Below, one piece after another: positions 3,488-56,029 of a DNA stretch of 64,000 nucleotides. Below the pieces are notes generated by a model. It saw only the letters and a list, made by a program, of their open reading frames with translations, ran no database searches and was not told where the DNA came from. Origin of the DNA: Candidatus Dojkabacteria bacterium. GTDB lineage: Bacteria; Patescibacteriota; Dojkabacteria; SC72. How positions within the stretch are numbered: the stretch's first letter is position 1; every line of letters begins with the position of its first letter. The stretch is from the NCBI GenBank assembly GCA_016182915.1, contig JACPFP010000002.1, positions 230,244 through 294,243 on the forward strand. The letters run 5' to 3'. Made by a program: the position numbers and the translations under genes.

Positions 3488-5985
3488 TAGTTGGAAACTA
3501 TAATTTTGTGATCCTTGAGTGTCAGAGAGAGACTATTAACCTTCCCTTTCACATTACTCTCAGTATCGTGTGAAAGAATATAGTTGGCAATTACGTTCTC
3601 AACTGTATCTTGAATCATCCTTCTTAAAGGCCTTGCCCCATACTCTTCACTAAAGCCCTCACTAACAATAAAGGTCTTCACCTTGCTATCTATGGTAACT
3701 TTAATACCTTGATTCTTCAACCTATCGTTTAACTCGTTAATTAATAGTTCTACAATCTTTGAGGCATCATCCCTCGTTAAGGCTCTGAATATAACAATAT
3801 CATCTAGCCTGTTTATTAATTCAGGTCTTAATGTATCCCTAAGCTCTTTCATCAAGGTTTCTTTCATAGATTCATATGCTTTTTCGAGATTTTCTGTTTC
3901 TACTTTCTCTTCACGGTTTCTAATGAACCCAAGGACCTTATCTTTTCTTATCTCTTCAGCTCCTATATTTGAGGTTAGGATAATCACGGTATTTTTGAAG
4001 TTCACCTTCCTACCTTTTCCATCTGTTAAATGACCATATTCAAGTATCTGTAAAAGGATATTTAATACGTCTGGATGGGCCTTTTCTATCTCGTCAAAGA
4101 GAATTACGGAGTGTGGGTGCTGTCTAATTCTCTCAGTTAACTGACCGCCTTCTCGATATCCGACATAACCAGGAGGAGATCCAATCAGCTTGGAGACACT
4201 ATGCATTTCCATCATCTCGCTCATATCAATCTGCATTAGTCGATCTTCATCGCCGAATAATTCATGGGTCAAAACCTTGGCAAGTTCTGTCTTTCCTACA
4301 CCCGTTGGGCCAAGAAAAAGGAATGATGCCCATGGCCTTCCTTCATCTGAGATTCCAGTTCGTGCTCTTTTTATAGCGCTAGAGACGGCCTCTACCGCCT
4401 CATTCTGACCAACAACCTTTCGATCTAAGCTCTTATTTAAGTTTAAAAGGGAAGACTTCTCGTTACCTCCCAACGTTGAAACTGGTATCCCTGTCCACTT
4501 TGAAACAACGTTTCTAATAGTGTTAACATCCACCTCATAATCATGGCTTTTCTGGCTTTTACTCCTGCTCGCTTCAAGACTTTTTACCTCTTTTTTGATA
4601 GCTAGCTCATCATTTTTCAGTTCAAGAGCCTCATCCATGAGACCACGTTTAATGTAATCTTCTTTCTCATCTTGAATATCCCTAAGCTCACCAAGAAGGG
4701 TGGATATTTGAGAGTACTCCTTCTCTACATCAAGCTTTCTTGTGGCACTCGCCTCATCCAATAGATCAATCGCTTTATCTGGAAGATACCTATCACTTAC
4801 ATATCTATCCGACAGGCGAACAGCTGTCTCAAAAGCTTCCTTGCCAATCCTTACATTGTGATGTTCCTCAAGGATAGGTTTTATCCGTTTTAAAATCCTA
4901 ATTGTATCCTCGACCGACATCTCATCTACCTGTACAACCTGAAATCTGCGAACCAAGGCATTATCTTCCTCCATATATTTTGTATATTCTGACATAGTTG
5001 TAGCTCCAATACACCTGAAATTCCCTCTTGTTAAAGCAGGTTTAAGAATTCCCGCAAGATCGGAAGGCATTCCAGGAATACCTGAATTCAAAACGTTATG
5101 AATCTCATCAATGAAAAGAATTATATCCGGGGAAGCCGTGACCTCCCTGATTACAGCCATCATTTTTTCCTCAACATCTCCTCGCATCTTGCTTCCGGCA
5201 ATGATACTAGAGACATCAAGAAGAATAATTCTGCTATCTCTGAGGGAATTAGTAACATCGCCATTCGCAACTCTCTGAGCTAAAGCTTCTACCAAAGCAG
5301 TCTTTCCAACTCCGGCTTCTCCAACTATTAATGGGTTGTTTTTCTTTCTTCTGGAAAGGATATTTATGATCTTATCCAGTTCCGCATCCCTACCGATAAT
5401 TGGATCAAGTTCCCCATCCTTGGCCTCTTTAACAAGGTCTCTTCCATAGACAGCTAGAGCAGACTGCTCTATATGCATACTCATCCCTTCTGGGTTTGAA
5501 AGTATTCCAGCTGGATATGTAGCGAAGTTTAAAAGGGCCTCTTCAAAGCTCTCATAGTCTAATCCCTGCTTATATATAATCTTCGTATCAGGACTTTTAT
5601 CATCCTTTAAAATTGAGAGAAGGATATGCTCAGTTCCTACATAAACGTGAGACATCTTATTCGCAAGGGCATATGCCCCTCTTATAACTTTATTTGACTC
5701 ACTTGAGAGTGTAATATTTATCTCTGAGAACTTCTCAATACTAAGCCCTGTTACGGCTCCACCAACAATAGATTCGACTATAACATTAACATCAAATCCC
5801 ATCGTCTTTACGGTTCTCGAAGCAAGAGATTTAGAATTCAAGATTAAACCAACAAATATATGTATAGGTTTTACATCTTCCGAACCCATTGATTTAGAAA
5901 TTTCCAGGGCAATTCTCAATGAAGTCTTTGCGTTCTCGCTTAATTTTGAGAGTACAGAAGAATCTTTTTTCTGCATAGGAAACAA
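3487..5985 (-). CDS. clpC: Clp/Hsp100 ATPase, ClpC-like: two AAA+ modules with a short middle domain
   Basis: 832 aa. Clp N-domain repeats, AAA-1 Walker A GEAGVGKT, AAA-2 Walker A GPTGVGKT, a short linker between AAA modules (ClpC-like rather than ClpB-like), and an LGF loop resembling a ClpP-docking motif. Confidence 0.8.
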   Translation of the reverse strand: MFPMQKKDSSVLSKLSENAKTSLRIALEISKSMGSEDVKPIHIFVGLILNSKSLASRTVKTMGFDVNVIVESIVGGAVTGLSIEKFSEINITLSSESNKVIRGAYALANKMSHVYVGTEHILLSILKDDKSPDTKIIYKQGLDYESFEEALLNFATYPAGILSNPEGMSMHIEQSALAVYGRDLVKEAKDGELDPIIGRDAELDKIINILSRRKKNNPLIVGEAGVGKTALVEALAQRVANGDVTNSLRDSRIILLDVSSIIAGSKMRGDVEEKMMAVIREVTASPDIILFIDEIHNVLNSGIPGMPSDLAGILKPALTRGNFRCIGATTMSEYTKYMEEDNALVRRFQVVQVDEMSVEDTIRILKRIKPILEEHHNVRIGKEAFETAVRLSDRYVSDRYLPDKAIDLLDEASATRKLDVEKEYSQISTLLGELRDIQDEKEDYIKRGLMDEALELKNDELAIKKEVKSLEASRSKSQKSHDYEVDVNTIRNVVSKWTGIPVSTLGGNEKSSLLNLNKSLDRKVVGQNEAVEAVSSAIKRARTGISDEGRPWASFLFLGPTGVGKTELAKVLTHELFGDEDRLMQIDMSEMMEMHSVSKLIGSPPGYVGYREGGQLTERIRQHPHSVILFDEIEKAHPDVLNILLQILEYGHLTDGKGRKVNFKNTVIILTSNIGAEEIRKDKVLGFIRNREEKVETENLEKAYESMKETLMKELRDTLRPELINRLDDIVIFRALTRDDASKIVELLINELNDRLKNQGIKVTIDSKVKTFIVSEGFSEEYGARPLRRMIQDTVENVIANYILSHDTESNVKGKVNSLSLTLKDHKIIVSN

Positions 5986-6032: not shown

Positions 6033-7421
6033 TTACTCCTGTGGGACCTCCTGTGCGATAGCTTCGTTAACAGCAGCTTCCAGCTCTTGCTTAGAGAGTT
6101 TCTTAGAAGCCTTCTTAGTTGTATCTTTCTCTGAAACAGCCTTAAGACTCAATCCTAAGTGTCTTTCAGTTGATGAGATAGAAAGGATCTTAACTTTAAC
6201 CTTATCCCCTTCCTTAACAATATCTGAAGGATCTTTAACAAGTTTATCTGACATCTCTGAGATATGTACAAGACCATTTAATCCATTTCCAACTCTTACA
6301 AATGCTCCATAAGGAACAACTTTCTGAATCTCACCATCAACAATATCACCAAGTTGGTACTTGGAAATTGCCTCTGACCATGGATCTTTCTGAAGTCTCT
6401 TGACACTGTATGCAACTCTCTTTCCACCATCAAATATTCCTATAACCATTACATCAACAAGTGATCCTGGTTGATATAGAACTCCAACATCCTCAACCTT
6501 ATCCCATGACAATTCTGAGAGGTGAACAAGACCTTCAAGGCCTGCAGCATTAACAAAAATTCCAAATGGTGCAATACCACTGACGGTTCCGTGTAACACA
6601 TCTCCCTCTTTAACCTTTCTTAATGTCTCATCTCTCTGCTCAATATCTCTGGCCTGGGTAACCATCTTCTCGGAGAGGATAACTCTGTTCTTCTCTCTGT
6701 CTAACTCAATAATCTTGGCATTAATTGCCTGACCGATTAATGATGTAAGTCTCTTCTGAACTTTAGCTGAAATATCTTTACCAACGGTTCTAACACCACT
6801 TGCATATACTCTAGACGCATCAAGTTGGGATGTTGGGATGAATCCACGAACATCTTTACCTAATTCAACTATAAGGCCACCGTTATTTGATTCCACAACT
6901 GTAGCTTCAACAACATCATTCTTAAGTTTAGCCTCTTCAAGTTTAAGCCAGATTCCAGCCTGCTTAGTTCTTCTAATAGAGAGAACTAACTGACCCTGAT
7001 CATCTTCTGGTTTAACAACATAGACAAGCATTGTATCCCCAACCTTTACAGTTGAAAGATCAAAACCATCTGCTTTCAATTCTCTTCCTGCAACAATACC
7101 CTCTGACTTATATCCGACATCAATAACCAACATTCCAGACCTTACATCCATAACAACACCTTCAACAATATCGCCCTTGGAAAGGTTCTTTAGCTGGTGA
7201 GAACTATCTGTAATGTATGACTCCAATCTAGAGTATAGGGCATCGGAATCTGTAGAGAGTGGTTTTACAGCTTTAGGTGTAACAGGAGCTTTTACTGCCT
7301 TTGGTTTCTCAACCTTAGGTGTGACAACCTTCTTCGTAGTAGTCTTTGTAACTTTCTTAGCTACTTTAGACTTTGTTTTAACTTCTTTTTCCATAACTTT
7401 AATTAATATCTCTACTCCCAC
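6033..7421 (-). CDS. rpsA: 30S ribosomal protein S1, reduced form with about four S1 domains and a Lys-rich N-terminal tail
   Basis: Repeated S1-domain signatures (GxV..V...G.FV....GL.GL.H.SE). The N-terminal ~60 aa are K/T/V-rich and low-complexity. Confidence 0.8.
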   Translation of the reverse strand: MGVEILIKVMEKEVKTKSKVAKKVTKTTTKKVVTPKVEKPKAVKAPVTPKAVKPLSTDSDALYSRLESYITDSSHQLKNLSKGDIVEGVVMDVRSGMLVIDVGYKSEGIVAGRELKADGFDLSTVKVGDTMLVYVVKPEDDQGQLVLSIRRTKQAGIWLKLEEAKLKNDVVEATVVESNNGGLIVELGKDVRGFIPTSQLDASRVYASGVRTVGKDISAKVQKRLTSLIGQAINAKIIELDREKNRVILSEKMVTQARDIEQRDETLRKVKEGDVLHGTVSGIAPFGIFVNAAGLEGLVHLSELSWDKVEDVGVLYQPGSLVDVMVIGIFDGGKRVAYSVKRLQKDPWSEAISKYQLGDIVDGEIQKVVPYGAFVRVGNGLNGLVHISEMSDKLVKDPSDIVKEGDKVKVKILSISSTERHLGLSLKAVSEKDTTKKASKKLSKQELEAAVNEAIAQEVPQE

Positions 7422-10508: not shown

Positions 10509-10637
10509 CAAATAATCCTCAGAATTACTTATGCCTGACAACCTCTATTTCTAGAGACATCAGGACTTAAATTCATAAAGAGCTAGAGAATGCTTACGCA
10601 CTCAAAACTGAATAGAAAATGAATATTTCAAAAAGTT

Positions 10638-13760
<3,123 letters not shown>

Positions 13761-13833
13761 GAAATTGAATTCATTTCTATTCAGTTTTTAATGTGCAAAC
13801 TAATTCTCAGTATTTCTATTTCTAGAAGTACTT

Positions 13834-26548: not shown

Positions 26549-26625
26549 TGGTGGGGGTGGGCGGACTCGAACCGCCGACATCGGCTTTATAAGAACCGCG
26601 CTCTAACCACCTGAGCTACACCCCC
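26549..26625 (-). tRNA. tRNA-Ile with anticodon UAU (decodes AUA)
   Basis: The reverse complement is GGGGGTGTAGCTCAGGTGGTTAGAGCGCGGTTCTTATAAAGCCGATGTCGGCGGTTCGAGTCCGCCCACCCCCACCA. The D-arm is identical to classic tRNA-Ile. The anticodon loop is CTTATAA, so positions 34-36 are TAT. Confidence 0.75.
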
Positions 26626-49480: not shown

Positions 49481-50257
49481 ATGAATATTAAGAATTCACT
49501 TGAAAACTTGGGATTGTCACAAAATGAGATTTCAATTTACCTCTACCTACTCTCAAAGGGAGAAAGCTTAGGTAATCAGATTCGTAAGGACAATCAATTA
49601 GACAAATCTACCTCGTATAAAGCAATCACACAATTACTTAGAAAGGGCCTTATAACAAGTTCAGGAGACTCAAGAAATCAAAAATTCAAAGTCGCTCCAA
49701 AAGATGTAATGTTAAAACTCTTTGATAAACAGAAAGCAGAGATTGATGACTCAAAAAGTATCTTCTTAAACGCATTTGCGGATCTAGAGAAATATTCAGC
49801 AGACTACTATCAAAATGAAAATGTGAAGATATTTGTGGGTAGTGATGCATATACAAGATATCACAAGGAGATACTACGAGAGGAGATAGAGACAATTAGG
49901 ACAATAACTTCTTCAGAGACCGCTAAAAAACTCGCCGGAGGAACAGGTAACCTTAAAGAGGGAAACGAATGGTTTATTAAAGAGAGAGTATCTAGAGATA
50001 TAAATGTTAAAGTCCTTTACGATATAAGTGCTATTCCAGATGAGTATGATGTAAGCAACATACCTTTACTCAAAGAATGCAGAAGGTACTCCCAAAAGCT
50101 CAACTTAGAGTCTATGATGTCTACCTTCGGAGATAGAGTTGGTTTTGCAACAATCAAAGAAGGAAAGTTTTGGGCCTTAATAATCAAGGATCAGTTAATT
50201 GTAGACTTGCTAAACAGCCTCTTCGAATCTATTTGGATAATTTCCACAAAATCTTAA
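49481..50257 (+). CDS. TrmB-like HTH transcriptional regulator (tentative)
   Basis: N-terminal LENLGLSQNEISIYLYLLSKGESLGNQI...KSTSYKAITQLLRKGLI resembles a TrmB-family wHTH. Confidence 0.45.
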   Translation: MNIKNSLENLGLSQNEISIYLYLLSKGESLGNQIRKDNQLDKSTSYKAITQLLRKGLITSSGDSRNQKFKVAPKDVMLKLFDKQKAEIDDSKSIFLNAFADLEKYSADYYQNENVKIFVGSDAYTRYHKEILREEIETIRTITSSETAKKLAGGTGNLKEGNEWFIKERVSRDINVKVLYDISAIPDEYDVSNIPLLKECRRYSQKLNLESMMSTFGDRVGFATIKEGKFWALIIKDQLIVDLLNSLFESIWIISTKS

Positions 50258-50260
50258 ACT

Positions 50261-51109
50261 ATGAATAGTTCAATACCAGAAATAAAAGCATTTGGGAAAG
50301 ATAGACTTTTGAAGTTAGGAATTGGGACCTGGGGTATAGGTGGATATATGACCAAGACCCCCTACTCCGATTATGTTAACGAGATTGCTCAAATTAAGTA
50401 TCAGATAAACAAGGGATTAACTTTATTAGATTGCTGGATAGCCCAAGGCGAAGGTGGATCACTAGAACTAATACGCCAATCAATTGAAGAGTTTGACAGG
50501 AAAAGCCTCACGCTGTTATGTAAGTTCGACATTCATAAATACAAAGATATTAATGAGTTAGAAGAGGTCTTTAATAAGTACTTGAAACAACTAAATATCA
50601 GGTACATAGATGTATTTCAAATTCATAAACCTGATTTTAAAAACATTTCAGAGAAAGAGCTTGAGAAGTTCTTAAAGAGAAAGATCGCAGAAGGAAAAGT
50701 AATCAAATTTGCAGTATCGAATGCAAATATAGAAAGCATTAAAAATATACAGAAGAAGATTGATATTCCAATTGAGGCAAATGAGATTCTATACAATATT
50801 TTCAATCGCGAATACGAGCACGATGGTACTATTGAGTACTGTGTCAAAAATGGAATAAAGATACTCGCTTACAGACCAATAAATAGAGGAATGGCAAATA
50901 TTGCGCATGCGAATACGGAGTTTGCTAACCTAGTACTTAAATATGGTGTAACTCCAAGTCAGTTAGCATTAAACTGGTTACTACAGAAAAAGAATGTTAT
51001 GGCTCTTATAAAGAGTTCAAATAGAGCCCACATTAATGAGAACCTTGATTGCATGTCTATCGAGCTTTCTAAGGACGATATCAAAATTCTTGATAACTGG
51101 AGTTTATAG
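50261..51109 (+). CDS. aldo/keto reductase
   Basis: AKR blocks: LGIGTWGIG, YIDVFQIHKPD, AVSNAN, ...GIKILAYRPI..., and a C-terminal SQLALNWLLQ...IKSSNRAHINEN. Confidence 0.7.
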   Translation: MNSSIPEIKAFGKDRLLKLGIGTWGIGGYMTKTPYSDYVNEIAQIKYQINKGLTLLDCWIAQGEGGSLELIRQSIEEFDRKSLTLLCKFDIHKYKDINELEEVFNKYLKQLNIRYIDVFQIHKPDFKNISEKELEKFLKRKIAEGKVIKFAVSNANIESIKNIQKKIDIPIEANEILYNIFNREYEHDGTIEYCVKNGIKILAYRPINRGMANIAHANTEFANLVLKYGVTPSQLALNWLLQKKNVMALIKSSNRAHINENLDCMSIELSKDDIKILDNWSL

Positions 51110-51149
51110 TTTCTATTCTTCACAAAGGTTGATATGTTACAATTCATCC

Positions 51150-51818
51150 ATGAATACAGCAATACTATTCTCTCATGGATTCGGAATTAGGAAAGACAAC
51201 CTGGGGCTATTTATCTTCCTTTCTGAAAAGTTGCAAAGATTAGGATATATAACCGTACTCTTCGACTACTACGAATATAACGAAGAAACTAAAGAGGTAT
51301 ACACCATTCCATTCTCAAAACACGCTGAAATCCTCCAAGCCCAGATTGAGAAAGTTAAAAAAGAATATCCAGGAAAAGATATTAAAATAGTTGCTCAATC
51401 CCAGGGTTGTATTATTCCAACCCTCTGTGATATGACAGGTATCTCCCAGGTAATTGGAATATCCCCCTTCTTCTTAACAGATAGAAATTCGATATTGGAA
51501 AGATACAATGCAAGACCAGATAGTACGACAGACTTTTCTAGTATCTCGAGAAGAAAACACTCCGACGGAAAGATAACTGTTATTCCACCTGAATACTGGA
51601 CAGAACGATTTAATACTAATCAATACGATTTATACAATAAACTTGCACAGAAGACCTCCCTAACTCTAATCTATGGGAACAAAGACAATCTTGCTACCTC
51701 CGCAGATATAAAAAACATTAGAAATACAAAGATTATAGAAACAGAATCAGACCACGACTTTACAGGAGAGAACAAAGAGATCCTTTACGAAATTCTCCTC
51801 AAGGAGATTAAGAATTAG
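51150..51818 (+). CDS. alpha/beta-fold hydrolase (internal Met chosen; the track ORF starts at 51036 inside the upstream gene)
   Basis: HGFG oxyanion-hole-like motif near the N-terminus, a nucleophile elbow AQSQG, and downstream D/H candidates. Confidence 0.5.
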   Translation: MNTAILFSHGFGIRKDNLGLFIFLSEKLQRLGYITVLFDYYEYNEETKEVYTIPFSKHAEILQAQIEKVKKEYPGKDIKIVAQSQGCIIPTLCDMTGISQVIGISPFFLTDRNSILERYNARPDSTTDFSSISRRKHSDGKITVIPPEYWTERFNTNQYDLYNKLAQKTSLTLIYGNKDNLATSADIKNIRNTKIIETESDHDFTGENKEILYEILLKEIKN

Positions 51819-52719
51819 AGGGATCAATCTCCTTTCTCACACTCCAATACTCTCTCCATACTTCAAATCCAAGCTTCCTATAGAAATCAACAGCATACGT
51901 CCAACCAATCCATACATATTTAATACCTTGCTCTTTGATTTTTTGAGTTCCCCAGGCCTTCATAGCTAAACCAATACCCTTCCCCCTATGCTTCTCTGAA
52001 ACTCCTAACGCCGCCCCACCGCCAACACTACCCTCAAAGAGAAGTTTCCAATTACACTCACCCATCCATAATTCACTAATCCCAACTATTTCATCTTCAA
52101 TGCTAGCGTAGAAAACCTCACTAAATCTTTCCTCTTCCATATCAGATCTATAATACTCATACCAGTTAGGAAAGTTTTCTTTAGTAAACTCTACAATCTT
52201 TTCAGCAACTTCTCTTGTAGACATAGCTATTTTAACACCCTTCTCCTCCATCATCTCTAAAATACCAGCAGGCAAATTCCAATTTGTAATATCCTGATAC
52301 ATATCAATAAGGCCTTTATCAGTGACCTCGAATCCAAGCTCTTTGAAAAATCCTTCCACATTTAAATTTTTAGGGAGACCAGGAAAGATATATGAACCCG
52401 CTCCTGCTCCAAACAGAACCTCTTTTACACCTTTCCCCCTAAAGTGCTCCTGAGCTTGCTTTAATAATTTACTCCCAATTCCATTGTTCCTATGGTTTTT
52501 ACCTACGAAAAGAAAGCATATTACCCCTTTACTCTCTCGAACCTTTATTGATATGTAACCAGCAAGATCATCTCCAACATATTCCTTAAAAACCTTAGTC
52601 TCATTATTGATATCGTTCTTATGTTTCCCTGTAACTATATTTAAGAATGGCTCCTTGTTAATTGGCCAAAGTTTATACTCTTCCGAATTTCTATATATTT
52701 CGTATAGTTGATTATCCAT
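51808..52719 (-). CDS. tandem GNAT N-acetyltransferase (two GNAT domains)
   Basis: Two acetyl-CoA-binding motifs: HRNNGIGSKLLKQA and HRGKGIGLAMKAW. Confidence 0.65.
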   Translation of the reverse strand: MDNQLYEIYRNSEEYKLWPINKEPFLNIVTGKHKNDINNETKVFKEYVGDDLAGYISIKVRESKGVICFLFVGKNHRNNGIGSKLLKQAQEHFRGKGVKEVLFGAGAGSYIFPGLPKNLNVEGFFKELGFEVTDKGLIDMYQDITNWNLPAGILEMMEEKGVKIAMSTREVAEKIVEFTKENFPNWYEYYRSDMEEERFSEVFYASIEDEIVGISELWMGECNWKLLFEGSVGGGAALGVSEKHRGKGIGLAMKAWGTQKIKEQGIKYVWIGWTYAVDFYRKLGFEVWREYWSVRKEIDPSNS

Positions 52720-52796
52720 CTCCCAAGTTTATCCCAAATATTGTTACATTGTAAGCTAGAGAAAGGGAATCACAGCTCCTTCTTTTAGGAATAACC

Positions 52797-52825
52797 TTGC
52801 TAATAAGCCTCTTTTACGCTATAAT
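52797..52825 (+). promoter_or_regulatory. near-consensus sigma70-type promoter: TTGCTA, 17 nt, TATAAT
   Basis: -35 at 52797-52802, 17-nt spacer, -10 at 52820-52825. Predicted TSS at about 52832. Confidence 0.5.
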
Positions 52826-52986
52826 CCCCCTGAGTTAATACTCAAATAGATATATATTTATAAAAATGCGTAGATTTGCATTAAACACAATGAAGAACTT
52901 AGTAGTAACACCTTGCTATGAAGGTGCGAATTTCATTGTGGCTTATCTATTGTCTTAACAAATATCCCTTTAAGCGAAACTAGATA

Positions 52987-53008
52987 AGCCTCCATCGGAG
53001 GCTTTTTT
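52987..53008 (+). terminator. intrinsic terminator
   Basis: AAGCCTCC-ATC-GGAGGCTT stem-loop followed by TTTTTT. Confidence 0.6.
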
Positions 53009-53096
53009 CATTAATTGCAAGTTGGAGGTTTTTCCAGGTTCACATTCACTTAGTGAGAGCCTGATGCCAGCTTGCACATTAAAAAAGGAGATAAAG

Positions 53097-53750
53097 ATGT
53101 TCGGAAAAGCTATGTCCATAAGGGGAAAAGCTGGGTTAATCCAGCTGAAGCCGTTCGCTAAAGAGGAGATCGCCTGCGCGAGAGTTTGCGGTATGTTCAG
53201 TGACCACGAGGTTACCCGCTATACCCTCATGCAGCACTCCCCTTCCATATCCGACGAAGAGAAGTTCTGGGAAAGGACCAGTGAGGATAAAGATTCGAGA
53301 GTTTGGGGTGTATACCTCGATGAAAGCCCCCTCATAGGGATAACCTCAATCAGGATAGATATACCCAATCATATGGGCTCAACCGGCTTTATGCTCTACG
53401 ATAAGAGTTTCTGGAGAAAAGGCATTGCCTCAACAAGCCATTTAGCCAGAACCCATTACGCCGTGGAGTTTCTAGACCTGAAGTCGATTACGAGTGGAGT
53501 TATATCCCCCAATACCGGCTCACGAAAAGCCCTTCAAAGTGTCGGATACTTCATAACGGGATATAAGTTGGGTCAACTATACCGAAATGGAGTCTACAGA
53601 CATCATGTCGATCTACAATGGATCCGTCCCGGATATGAGAACCTGATCCTCGCAGACGGAATCCCAGAAGAACTATCTTCCAGAGCAAAGGAAGCTATCC
53701 TAACCGCCGAAAAAGCTCTCCAAAGAGCCAAAGTTGAAGTGAAATTCTAA
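53097..53750 (+). CDS. GNAT N-acetyltransferase (RimJ/RimL-like)
   Basis: SD AAGGAG 8 nt upstream of the ATG at 53097. Motif NTGSRKALQSVGY. Confidence 0.65.
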   Translation: MFGKAMSIRGKAGLIQLKPFAKEEIACARVCGMFSDHEVTRYTLMQHSPSISDEEKFWERTSEDKDSRVWGVYLDESPLIGITSIRIDIPNHMGSTGFMLYDKSFWRKGIASTSHLARTHYAVEFLDLKSITSGVISPNTGSRKALQSVGYFITGYKLGQLYRNGVYRHHVDLQWIRPGYENLILADGIPEELSSRAKEAILTAEKALQRAKVEVKF

Positions 53751-53843
53751 ATTCAGTTGCAAGCTGGCGCAAGAGCCCTAGGTATAAAAAATACTTAGGG
53801 CTTTTTTCTTTTAAGGAATATCCATATCTTTCTACAAAGAAAT

Positions 53844-54776
53844 GTGAAAAAATCAGTTATGGAACTATCAAATGAGCTCACCGCACTATACAGACATTGG
53901 GAAAAACACATTAATAATAGAAACGAGGATAGGAAGGTGATATTAAACAGAGATGTATACGAGAGAATAGTTAAGTTTGCCAATGAAAGAATGACTATTT
54001 ATGAGAGGAAAATCAAAGGAGATCTTCCTCCATTCAGTACCGATAAGATACTCTGTAACTATAGATTTTGTAATATCTATAGAGAATTAGACAGACAAAC
54101 AATTGCATTCCATAGGCTTCTGAAACCATACGAAAATAACTTTTCCCTCTGGCTTCTCAATATGCTCTTCTGCCGTTTTATATGCAATCCAGGAACAATA
54201 TCGAAGGTTGGACTCCTAAACTTTGAAAGGAGCAACAACATTAAGGTATTTAAAAAGCTCTCCTCCCTATCCTCTCCTAAATATGGAGTCGCCTACATAT
54301 TTCCCATAAGTACAATACAAAAATCCAAATACAATACCCGTGAGAAATTCTTCTGTTACTACCTCCCCACCGTAATAAAAGAGATTGCAAAGGAGATTGA
54401 AGCCTTCGAGAGCATTTCAGTTACAGAGGCTTTAGAAAGACTCCTCCCTATCTTTGGCTTCAACTTTAAGTTCCATTTTACAGAACTCCTAATCGACACG
54501 GCATACCAGTACCCAGATAAAATAGATCTATTTAAGAGGTTCCCAATTGGCCCAGGCTCCCTCCCTACAATGAACCTCCTCAACCCTACTCAATCCCCAG
54601 AGGAGGTGTGCATGAGCCTTGCTTCCACACATCCTAACAAGTTTAACTACCTAACAATCAACGGTAAAAAGATTCCCCTTAGTGCAGAGAACTGGGAAGG
54701 GATAGGGTGTGAATTTAGAAAATATACAAACCTAAACAAGGGAGATGGAAGGAAGCGACTGTATATAAATAAGTGA
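53844..54776 (+). CDS. hypothetical protein (310 aa) with conserved-looking NYRFCNIYRELDRQT and GPGS blocks
   Basis: Long ORF with coding-like composition. No family confidently recognised. Confidence 0.45.
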   Translation: MKKSVMELSNELTALYRHWEKHINNRNEDRKVILNRDVYERIVKFANERMTIYERKIKGDLPPFSTDKILCNYRFCNIYRELDRQTIAFHRLLKPYENNFSLWLLNMLFCRFICNPGTISKVGLLNFERSNNIKVFKKLSSLSSPKYGVAYIFPISTIQKSKYNTREKFFCYYLPTVIKEIAKEIEAFESISVTEALERLLPIFGFNFKFHFTELLIDTAYQYPDKIDLFKRFPIGPGSLPTMNLLNPTQSPEEVCMSLASTHPNKFNYLTINGKKIPLSAENWEGIGCEFRKYTNLNKGDGRKRLYINK

Positions 54777-54788
54777 TATAATTCATAG

Positions 54789-55292
54789 ATGAAATTCATT
54801 ACCGCTAAGCAATACCAAACTATTAAAGATATCCCCAGATCCAGACTAACCGCCCGTTTTCTTGTCTACACAGGTGCGATTATTGAAAAAGGTGGAAAGG
54901 TCCTTTTGTGCAAGCCAATAAAATCCAAATACCCAGGATGGCAGTTACCAGGAGGAAAGGTCCTCTGGAGCGAAGATATCAGAGAGGCTGTATGTAGAGA
55001 GGTTCTAGAAGAAACGGGACTAACAGTTGAGTTACAAGGTCTCATAGGTATATTCGAGAGAAAAACGGAACCAGAAGACGAAGAGTTCCTACGGGTTATA
55101 TTTACAGCTTCCATCAAAGGAAAACCCATTAAAATTGAAGATCCTGAAATTGCAGAAATTAATTGGTTTGACCCTAAAGATATCCTCAATGAAAAAGTCC
55201 CTCTACAAACGAAACAGATGCTTAAAGAATTTGATCGATATGTTAAAGGAAAGAGTTTTCCACTCGAAGTAATTGATATATATACTTGGTAA
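54789..55292 (+). CDS. Nudix hydrolase
   Basis: Nudix box GGKVLWSEDIREAVCREVLEETGL. Confidence 0.7.
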   Translation: MKFITAKQYQTIKDIPRSRLTARFLVYTGAIIEKGGKVLLCKPIKSKYPGWQLPGGKVLWSEDIREAVCREVLEETGLTVELQGLIGIFERKTEPEDEEFLRVIFTASIKGKPIKIEDPEIAEINWFDPKDILNEKVPLQTKQMLKEFDRYVKGKSFPLEVIDIYTW

Positions 55293-56029
55293 AGATGAGA
55301 CCATATCTGAATAAATATAAGAAGAAAGAGCCTTTAACCATTGTCTGTATTGGCGATAGTACCACATCGCAAGAGTGGTGCCACCCAAACTGGGTTGATT
55401 GGATAAACTTTGTTTTCAGACAGGGAGAAGGAGAACTAGAGGGAGTTAAAAGAAAGGTTATCAACTCGGGAGGAGACGGACAAAATAATAGATATTTCAT
55501 AGAGAATTTCGAAGACACAATTGCTATGTATAAGCCCGACATAGTAGTAATGTCGCTTGGTTTTAATCATCTTGAAAAGATAGACAGATTCAGCGAATCT
55601 ACACTAGAATTAGTAAAAATGATTAAAGAGATCGGTAGTGAAGTAGTGCTTTGGTCAACATATGACACACCAAACCTCAAATACTCTGAAAAGTTGGGGC
55701 ACGCTAGTAATATATATCAAGAAGTAGCGAAAAGCCAAGACGCTATATTCGTCGATATATACTCCGAATTTAGAAGATACAACCTCCCTTCTCTCTTCAC
55801 TTTTGTACATCAATGGGACAACCCTGACTGGGGACTTAAACCAGGAGACATAGACTTCATACACTGCAATAAGATTGGAAATCAGGTAATAGCAGAAAAG
55901 ATTCTCAAAGAGGTATTCGAAACAGATCTTTCAATGACCAAGGAATGGGAGGCGGTTGGAGGAAGAATGGGAAATATGTTTCCAGTAGATCTTAATAACT
56001 ATTTATTAGAAAAACATAATGGAGAGTAA
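55286..56029 (+). CDS. SGNH/GDSL-family hydrolase
   Basis: Block I GDSTT, block II ...SLGFNH, block V DFIHCN. Confidence 0.65.
   Translation: MVKMRPYLNKYKKKEPLTIVCIGDSTTSQEWCHPNWVDWINFVFRQGEGELEGVKRKVINSGGDGQNNRYFIENFEDTIAMYKPDIVVMSLGFNHLEKIDRFSESTLELVKMIKEIGSEVVLWSTYDTPNLKYSEKLGHASNIYQEVAKSQDAIFVDIYSEFRRYNLPSLFTFVHQWDNPDWGLKPGDIDFIHCNKIGNQVIAEKILKEVFETDLSMTKEWEAVGGRMGNMFPVDLNNYLLEKHNGE

Follow-up and report, generated by a model that had tools for sequence, protein, structure and literature searches.

A putative leader-peptide attenuator ahead of a GNAT acetyltransferase gene in Patescibacteria

A short transcription unit is present at positions 52797–53008 of a 64,000-nucleotide (nt) stretch of DNA from a Candidatus Dojkabacteria bacterium (contig JACPFP010000002.1; the whole stretch is termed the window here). 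It consists of a promoter, a small leader open reading frame (ORF) and an intrinsic terminator, and is followed on the same strand by a gene for a GNAT N-acetyltransferase. The unit is probably a cis-acting transcription attenuator of this GNAT gene, of the ribosome-mediated (leader-peptide) type exemplified by the trp operon. This reading is based on sequence comparison of 16 copies of the leader and on predicted RNA structure. A preliminary description of the region had presented the unit as an orphan and as a candidate small RNA (sRNA) or micro-ORF. The orphan status and the stand-alone sRNA have been given up: in every copy the unit is immediately followed, on the same strand, by a gene with a Shine-Dalgarno (SD) sequence, the terminator 5′ arm is common to a predicted antiterminator, and a further helix spans the terminator. 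The terminated RNA of ~145–180 nt would thus be a by-product of a cis-acting attenuator leader, although it may have a function in trans as well.

The leader unit in the window

The elements of the unit and of the gene that follows are listed below, by position in the window.

52797–52825, + strand: sigma-70-type promoter of the leader-GNAT unit, with the −35 hexamer TTGCTA at 52797–52802, a 17-nt spacer and the −10 hexamer TATAAT at 52820–52825 (hexamer scan)
52845–52852, + strand: Region 1, AAUAGAUA, 8/8 complementary to UAUCUAUU at 52944–52951, the 3′ end of the A box
52866–52958, + strand: leader ORF MRRFALNTMKNLVVTPCYEGANFIVAYLLS, 30 codons plus TAA, no SD (ORF listing, comparison of 16 loci)
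52886–52894 / 52932–52940, + strand: P3 stem-loop inside the ORF, CACAAUGAA / UUCAUUGUG (folding, complementarity)
52909–52914 / 52921–52926, + strand: inner hairpin of P3, CACCUU / AAGGUG
52940–52949, + strand: A box GGCUUAUCUA, predicted antiterminator 5′ arm (RNAalifold, alignment)
52970–52994, + strand: B-ext, which contains the B box and the terminator 5′ arm
52981–52990, + strand: B box UAGAUAAGCC, predicted antiterminator 3′ arm
52986–52993, + strand: terminator 5′ arm AAGCCUCC
52986–53008, + strand: intrinsic terminator AAGCCUCC-AUC-GGAGGCUU with U6 at 53003–53008 (terminator scan, conservation)
53016–53025 / 53067–53076, + strand: outer stem of the post-terminator hairpin, UGCAAGUUGG / CCAGCUUGCA (folding, complementarity)
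53023–53047, + strand: D-ext, made up of the D box UGGAGGUUU and the 5′ arm of the next hairpin, complementary to B-ext across the terminator
53035–53041 / 53057–53063, + strand: inner stem of the post-terminator hairpin, CAGGUUC / GAGCCUG
53085–53090, + strand: SD AAGGAG of the GNAT gene
53097–53750, + strand: GNAT N-acetyltransferase ORF, 217 amino acids (aa), PF13302 Acetyltransf_3 (ORF listing, Pfam)
53771–53805, + strand: strong intrinsic terminator with a 15-pair stem, closing the leader-GNAT unit (terminator scan)

The promoter matches at 10/12 hexamer positions and ranks first among 16 promoter-like sites in the region 50000–56000. Transcription is predicted to start at ~52832, which would give a 5′ untranslated region (5′UTR) of ~33 nt in the window locus. 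In DNA letters the terminator hairpin reads AAGCCTCC-ATC-GGAGGCTT at positions 52986–53004; its stem is GC-rich and 8 bp long, and the T6 tract runs to 53008. The TTGCTA-17-TATAAT promoter and the clean hairpin with a T6 tract, both of which the preliminary description had pointed out, are thus present in the sequence. An ORF of 31 codons at 52866–52961 had also been given; the ORF is there, with 30 sense codons and a stop at 52866–52958, and as had been stated there is no SD ahead of its ATG.

The predicted 181-nt RNA is more stable than each of 200/200 dinucleotide shuffles (z = −4.05), and the fold of the long transcript gives a z of −4.78.

In the promoter spacer, at 52803–52811, there is a 9-nt segment, ATAAGCCTC, that is identical to 52984–52992 in the B box/terminator 5′ arm. 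It is not seen in the promoter spacers of the other loci and is probably due to chance.

Conservation of the leader in related loci

The DNA around GNAT homologues was collected, and metagenome contigs were scanned for the two conserved boxes. The leader is present upstream of every GNAT homologue that has enough upstream DNA, and 16 distinct copies were found, two of them in L003. Eight are of the Dojkabacteria type (the window, L003a, L003b, L004, L006, L007, L012 and L014) and eight of the Saccharibacteria type (L008–L011, L015 and L017–L019). The promoter, ORF, switching boxes and terminator have the same order in the 15 other loci. The gene directly downstream of the leader is on the same strand with an SD of its own, and in 15/16 copies it encodes a PF13302 GNAT; the Saccharibacteria-type GNATs are 32–33% identical to the window protein. 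L002, the single locus from a scan of a genome collection with the GNAT protein, is cut 45 nt upstream of the gene. Upstream sequence is missing from both L002 and L013, and the part still present agrees with the post-terminator element; in L002 this is the last part of that element. In the 64-kb window a profile of the core region matches a single leader copy, and no copy lying apart from a downstream SD-led gene was found. The leader motif is absent from the viral contigs that were scanned.

The second leader copy in L003 is complete (positions 4200–4520, + strand), with a peptide MSNRCWSTIKRFSFRKINHLPYLSFVAYLSH, a B box CAGAUAAGCC and a D element. It precedes two ORFs unrelated to GNAT, at 4519–4668 (49 aa) and 4806–5756 (316 aa), for which there is no Pfam or NCBIfam match. 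Thus the leader module is not tied to one gene.

A search with cmscan against Rfam, which the preliminary description had proposed, shows no family that matches the leader. With Rfam 15 there is no leader match in the whole window at the gathering threshold, in 52600–53200 at E ≤ 10, or in five related loci at E ≤ 0.05; the matches far below threshold are terminator-like fragments of Phe_leader, ctRNA and similar families only. A scan for tRNA and transfer-messenger RNA (tmRNA) gives no match in the leader region, and no description of the leader element was found in the searchable literature.

The leader open reading frame

The leader frame is open in 16/16 loci. It starts with ATG, has 28–34 codons, and ends in all cases with [A/T]-Y-L followed by 1–3 codons and TAA. 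In the first 11 loci frame 0 is free of stop codons, whereas frames +1 and +2 contain 14 and 26, and the reverse frames have 1–3 per sequence. The gaps introduced by MAFFT inside the ORF are all multiples of 3. The leader ORF is very probably translated, and in this form the micro-ORF of the preliminary description is retained.

Promoter-like hexamers are found at the equivalent position in all the other loci; the preliminary description had named failure of the hexamers to be conserved in relatives as an outcome that would refute its reading, and this outcome did not arise. In 9/16 loci the −35/17/−10 promoter ends exactly 6 nt before the ATG, and there is a TGn extension in five. This geometry predicts leaderless mRNAs that begin at the AUG in these nine loci. 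The window copy has 40 nt between the −10 box and the ATG, so the leaderless geometry does not apply there; the window and its nearest relatives have an AU-rich 5′UTR of ~22–34 nt. Leaderless or AU-rich initiation would account for the missing SD.

Between close relatives most of the differences are non-synonymous, and there is no bias towards third codon positions. For example, L007 and L012 differ by 10 non-synonymous codon changes and 1 synonymous change. The peptide is thus not conserved as a product; it is translatability and the C-terminal codons that are retained.

All eight Dojkabacteria-type peptides contain a cysteine, never at a fixed position, and L008 is the only one of the eight Saccharibacteria-type peptides that has one. 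The cysteines of the Dojkabacteria-type peptides may reflect UG-rich RNA stems.

Antiterminator and terminator

The 3′ end of the leader ORF, GGCUUAUCU, pairs with AGAUAAGCC, and the latter overlaps the terminator 5′ arm. This pairing, A:B, is the helix of the RNAalifold consensus. The A box also codes for the last base of Val and then for Ala-Tyr-Leu. The B box starts ~30 nt downstream of the A box, and the segment AAGCC is common to B and the terminator 5′ arm. B-ext has in all three mutually exclusive partners: A, C (which forms the terminator with B) and D-ext.

The A box is invariant in 13/16 loci and reads GACUUAUCU in the other 3. In an alignment of 15 sequences, 94% of the A:B cells are paired and one pair shows a GC to AU compensation. 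The terminator is conserved in all loci, with 95.8% of cells paired and one compensatory pair in the same alignment. L017 and L018 have the A box GACUUAUCU, the B box AGAUAAGUC and the terminator AAGUCUCC/GGAGACUU; here, at the position of window 52989 (A3 column 55), a C to U change is accompanied by a G to A change in A and a G to A change in C. In L019 the equivalent C to U change is compensated in A, in C and also in the third partner, D (G to A).

The terminator hairpin by itself has a predicted free energy of −8.8 to −13.6 kcal/mol. When the RNA is cut just after B, A:B forms in 11/11 leaders folded. In the full-length leaders (first 11) the terminator state is the minimum-energy fold or lies within ~1.5 kcal/mol of it, and forcing the antiterminator costs 0 to 6 kcal/mol relative to the minimum.

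P3 abuts the A box; each locus is predicted to have it, but its sequence differs from locus to locus. P3 covaries: in a cross-pairing test each 3′ strand favours its own 5′ partner, with a pairing energy of −9.7 kcal/mol vs −5.0 kcal/mol off the diagonal, and 0/20000 permutations were as good. P3 is a candidate RNA polymerase pause hairpin, and would form part of the structure that the ribosome must melt.

The pairing of Region 1 with the A box is present in the minimum-energy fold of the long transcript. Region 1 is a possible anti-antiterminator, equivalent to a 1:2 pairing.

A third helix across the terminator

A conserved element, the D box (UGGAGGYU), follows the U-tract in every locus, and a hairpin comes after it. 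The D box is a copy of the terminator 3′ arm. Across the terminator, B-ext and D-ext form 19–24 of 27 ungapped pairs in the first 11 loci, and the energy of the duplex is predicted at −19.5 to −30.6 kcal/mol. Over the aligned sequences the 25 pairs of the helix are 81% paired, vs 28–45% in slid controls. Nine pairs are changed on both sides, and the covariation score is reached by 0/500 shuffles. The pairing also accounts for the invariant G and C just 5′ of the B box.

B-ext:D-ext links the terminator with the conserved element ahead of the GNAT ribosome-binding site. The helix needs both sides of the terminator on one RNA, so it would form only in read-through RNA. Its covariation therefore argues for selection on the read-through RNA, for a terminator that is conditional, and for a leader and GNAT mRNA that are one molecule.

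The post-terminator hairpin competes with B-ext for D-ext and is conserved in the Dojkabacteria-type loci. The Saccharibacteria-type loci have instead a shorter hairpin of the form GGUCUC-loop-GAGACC.

Sequestering of the GNAT SD by the A–B loop or by the post-terminator hairpin was considered and rejected as the role of the D element. The window has a complementarity, UAUCCCUUU vs AAAGGAGAUA, that is not kept in the other loci, and constrained partition-function folds gave no consistent change of SD accessibility between the A:B, terminator and B:D states.

The downstream gene and its surroundings

The window GNAT is 100% identical to an NCBI protein from Candidatus Dojkabacteria. A profile search gave 711 GNAT relatives at E ≤ 1e-20, and the named ones are from Candidatus Saccharimonadales/Saccharibacteria. 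The AlphaFold2 model of the protein has a predicted local distance difference test score (pLDDT) of 93. Among solved structures it comes closest to SpeG spermidine acetyltransferases, RimJ, a lasso-peptide acetyltransferase and AAC(6′)-Im, all to about the same degree, at 12–21% identity. As regards the substrate, the sequence and fold searches gave generic GNAT similarity only (a weak PseH match below the cut-off; 1nsl).

No promoter-like site was found by the promoter scan between the end of the terminator at 53008 and the GNAT start at 53097. On the other side of the unit, the gene at 51808–52719 (− strand) also encodes a GNAT and runs away from the unit. The preliminary description had placed the unit in a divergent intergenic region between GNAT genes; this holds for the upstream GNAT, and the downstream GNAT is on the same strand as the unit. 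The upstream neighbours vary among the loci, thus the divergent GNAT at 51808–52719 is not part of the unit.

The public call of the window GNAT (P0001) has 185 aa and begins at an internal ATG; the SD-led ATG gives 217 aa, as in all homologues. In L014 the public call at 440–1273 (P0009, 277 aa) extends upstream through the terminator into the region of the leader ORF, and in L018 the leader ORF itself is called as a gene of 52 aa. Gene callers thus mishandle the locus: the GNAT is shortened in one call and extended through the leader in another, and the leader ORF of the window is unannotated. An in-frame, TTG-extended ORF at 53022–53750 was examined as a longer form of the GNAT and rejected, since the homologous region in L007 and others has stops in frame.

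Proposed mechanism

The following sequence of events is suggested by the arrangement of the elements. Transcription would start from the promoter at 52797–52825. The nascent RNA would carry the 30-codon ORF, whose final codons, Val-Ala-Tyr-Leu, are the A box and are complementary to the B box. If a ribosome is at or near the UAA when the polymerase makes the terminator, A would be masked, B would pair with C, and transcription would stop at 53008. The leader stop codon lies 13–19 nt past the first base of A, and B starts at least 15 nt past the stop; A is thus within the footprint of a terminating ribosome and B is outside it, so that such a ribosome would cover A and leave B free for C. If no ribosome is there, or if it lags behind or stalls within the first two thirds of the ORF, A would be free to pair with B as B emerges, the terminator would be blocked, and the polymerase would continue into the GNAT gene.

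P3 probably pauses and synchronises the polymerase and the ribosome, and may help to sequester A. Both this role and the direction of the switch are presumed from the positions of the elements. In the read-through RNA the longer B-ext:D-ext helix could replace A:B; it might lock or reset the leader, form a processing site, act as a barrier to degradation, or bring the leader stop near the GNAT ribosome-binding site.

As there is no run of codons for one amino acid in the ORF, the most likely signal is a general slowdown of translation, by an inhibitor or by starvation.

Several points weigh against this reading. The start of transcription, the translation of the ORF and the conditional nature of termination are all inferred from sequence. 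The hexamer match taken alone is at chance level (16 promoter-like sites observed vs 16.0 ± 5.0 in shuffles), and so is the terminator match (6 sites observed vs 4.3 ± 1.8 in shuffles). Since promoter and terminator matches occur at chance frequency in this AT-rich DNA, the case rests on structure and conservation. The ORF of the window has a ~33-nt 5′UTR without an SD, which makes its translation efficiency uncertain. It has no run of regulatory codons for one amino acid, and the 16 peptides show, aside from [A/T]YL, neither a repeated amino acid nor one enriched at a fixed position; tandem regulatory codons define the amino-acid-operon subclass and not attenuation as such. The A and B boxes hardly vary, instead of covarying freely, and a protein or ligand that recognises them could be the cause. 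The 1:2 pairing, of A with sequence upstream of it, has a mean probability of 0.63 vs 0.40 in shuffles, a moderate difference, and is clearly above the shuffles in ~5/15 loci; the register that sequesters A differs between the Dojkabacteria-type and Saccharibacteria-type groups. Lastly, B-ext:D-ext, the best-supported helix, has no consistent effect on the predicted accessibility of the GNAT SD and falls outside a simple attenuation model.

Alternative explanations

An extended scheme, which we regard as rather unlikely, would make the leader a two-stage relay, present across candidate-phyla bacteria. In the first stage a leaderless arrest peptide of ~30 aa, ending in [A/T]YL-x-stop, would sense a small molecule or translation inhibitor in the ribosome and set the choice of A:B vs B:C; B-ext:D-ext would then control the fate of the read-through mRNA by processing, by stability, or by coupling GNAT translation to the leader. 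We know of no described attenuator with a helix that spans the terminator and shares a strand with both the antiterminator and the terminator. The relay, if true, would be the first dedicated ribosome-sensing regulon (“ribulon”) in Patescibacteria, and would help to learn which signals these epibionts receive from their hosts.

A simpler form of nascent-peptide sensing, of the TnaC, SpeFL or MAGDIS type, has the ribosome stall at or near the stop codon with a small molecule and so set the terminator choice. Candidate ligands would be a polyamine or an antibiotic that is acetylated by the SpeG/RimJ-like GNAT, and spermidine N-acetyltransferases are indeed among the nearest solved folds. The C-terminal motif, the TAA and the 28–34-codon length are kept in 16/16 loci while the rest of the peptide drifts. 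The Leu of [A/T]YL is encoded by CUA, CUU or CUG and is never replaced, and the Saccharibacteria-type peptides have SYQ and [FL]GG motifs in common. All this would suit an arrest peptide. The [A/T]YL codons are, however, the A box itself, so that RNA pairing also explains their invariance, and the sole change, Ala to Thr, is compensated in B, C and D, which indicates that it is the pairing that is preserved. In addition, a ribosome held at the stop would hide A and tip the balance towards termination, the wrong direction for the induction of a detoxifying enzyme, and at 12–21% identity the fold matches are those of a generic GNAT. Such a sensor is improbable.

There is a similarly small chance that the leader is a translation-independent riboswitch or a protein-binding leader, in which the A, B, C and D elements are the expression platform and the ORF is incidental. 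The RNA is highly structured, as the z values of −4.05 and −4.78 show, and a terminator/antiterminator architecture is typical of riboswitches. The invariance of the A and B boxes looks like specific recognition, and the ORF in the window has no SD. A non-coding aptamer would, however, need neither a frame open in 16/16 loci nor indels in threes, and would have no reason to keep the −10 box exactly 6 nt before the ATG in 9 loci. There is no aptamer-like core: the invariant columns are found only in the A, B, C and D boxes, and the candidate aptamer region, P3 and the loops, varies freely and has no conserved nucleotides. The region 52600–53200 also has no Rfam match even at E ≤ 10.

That the unit is an independent gene is very improbable. 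It would be a trans-acting sRNA or the precursor of a small protein, bacteriocin or ribosomally synthesized and post-translationally modified peptide (RiPP), with the GNAT expressed separately or after a leaky terminator that sets stoichiometry; the complete promoter-ORF-terminator arrangement, the trans activity that leader peptides and terminated attenuator RNAs can have elsewhere among bacteria (PMC7968998, PMC7298713) and a solved lasso-peptide acetyltransferase near the GNAT model by fold would agree with this, but the excess of non-synonymous changes between close relatives is unlike a functional peptide, there is no promoter-like site between the terminator and the GNAT start, the terminator shares its nucleotides with the conserved antiterminator, B-ext:D-ext requires both sides of the terminator on one RNA, and the single copy in the 64-kb window, like all others found, is followed by an SD-led gene.

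Relation to known attenuators

Leader-peptide attenuation is a known kind of control; this instance of it is absent from Rfam 15. The E. coli trpL, hisL, pheL, thrL, leuL and ilv attenuators likewise have a short leader ORF (its translation being a prediction in the present case) and an intrinsic terminator before the structural gene. In both, nucleotides of the antiterminator belong also to the terminator 5′ arm and to the ORF 3′ end, and the stop codon is placed so that a terminating ribosome would mask an antiterminator arm. P3, as a hairpin inside the ORF and a possible pause hairpin, resembles the trp 1:2 structure. Unlike the amino-acid-operon attenuators, the present leader has no codon run for a single amino acid, and its target is a GNAT and not a biosynthetic operon. 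Its ORF is leaderless or lacks an SD, its boxes are almost invariant over phylum-level distances, and it has an extra covarying helix from the B region to beyond the terminator.

Leaderless leader-peptide attenuators have been described: 14 are predicted in Deinococcus deserti (PMC4007540), and polycysteine leaderless short ORFs are found in mycobacteria (10.1101/834739). In these attenuators, as is predicted for nine of the present loci, the regulatory ORF is at the 5′ end of the transcript and the −10 box precedes the AUG by a few nt; expression of the downstream genes depends on where the ribosome stands, as is proposed here. Those ORFs differ in being rich in the cognate amino acid, and the mycobacterial case works by sequestration of a ribosome-binding site and not by an intrinsic terminator. 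It should be noted that leaderlessness is predicted here from promoter geometry in 9/16 loci, and that the window copy has a ~33-nt 5′UTR.

Ribosome-mediated attenuators that respond to antibiotics include bmrB-bmrCD of B. subtilis (PMC4191407), mef/mel(msrD) (PMC4335068, PMC10314930) and the tylosin-induced yxjB (PMC6851288). Like the present leader, those of bmrCD, msrD/mef and yxjB lack runs of codons for an amino acid; the terminator choice is set there by slowing of the ribosome while it is in the ORF, as is proposed here. Their likeness to the present leader extends to a target from an enzyme superfamily that includes drug-modifying enzymes. They differ from the present leader, in which no known stalling motif was identified and whose hosts are uncultivated or epibiotic.

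TnaC is a ligand-dependent arrest peptide that acts near its stop codon (PMC8429421). TnaC and SpeFL share with the present peptides the conserved C-terminal residues next to the stop and a length about that of the exit tunnel. They differ in that termination is Rho-dependent; here the conserved codons double as an RNA pairing box, and arrest at the stop would promote termination and not prevent it.

What would distinguish the present leader is an ORF that is predicted to be leaderless in many loci, boxes that are frozen across the Dojkabacteria and Saccharibacteria types, a covarying helix that bridges the terminator, and a GNAT target.

Patescibacteria have tiny genomes with few recognisable regulators and almost no characterised regulatory RNAs. 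The present element is kept in at least two lineages of Patescibacteria, and its boxes of 9–10 nt are nearly unchanged while the GNAT drifts to ~32% identity. The predicted link is one from the status of the ribosome to the expression of a GNAT family that has more than 700 members by homology, the check for the leader itself being confined to the loci compared here. Should the substrate of the GNAT be a translation inhibitor, a polyamine or a ribosomal protein, the switch would act as a sensor of translation stress in organisms that are attached to antibiotic-producing hosts. The third helix, which bridges the terminator, may reveal an additional layer of control after read-through.

Other features of the window and of L003

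L003 has a T-box leader at 6206–6456 (+ strand; 97 bits, above gathering) upstream of a class-I tRNA synthetase gene. A match to the tRNA model (6499–6581, + strand; 61 bits) lies between the T-box and the synthetase gene, which is an odd placement. The predicted T-box shows that terminator/antiterminator control is used in these bacteria.

In the window, the next gene after the GNAT unit (53844–54776, + strand) has a Pfam match to HMUDK_hel, the helical domain of 5-hydroxymethyl-dU DNA kinase (E = 1.7e-20). This domain belongs to phage thymidine-hypermodification pathways and is unexpected in a Dojkabacteria chromosome. Its neighbour (54789–55292, + strand) resembles a NUDIX hydrolase by eye.

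The 23S rRNA gene at 10626–13762 (− strand) is 3137 nt long vs a model of 2925 nt. It has insertions, e.g. near model position 290, where ~70 nt stand in place of the 3 in the model. A tRNA-Ile gene with the anticodon TAT is found at 26549–26625 (− strand), besides the tRNA-Ile(GAT) in the rRNA operon.

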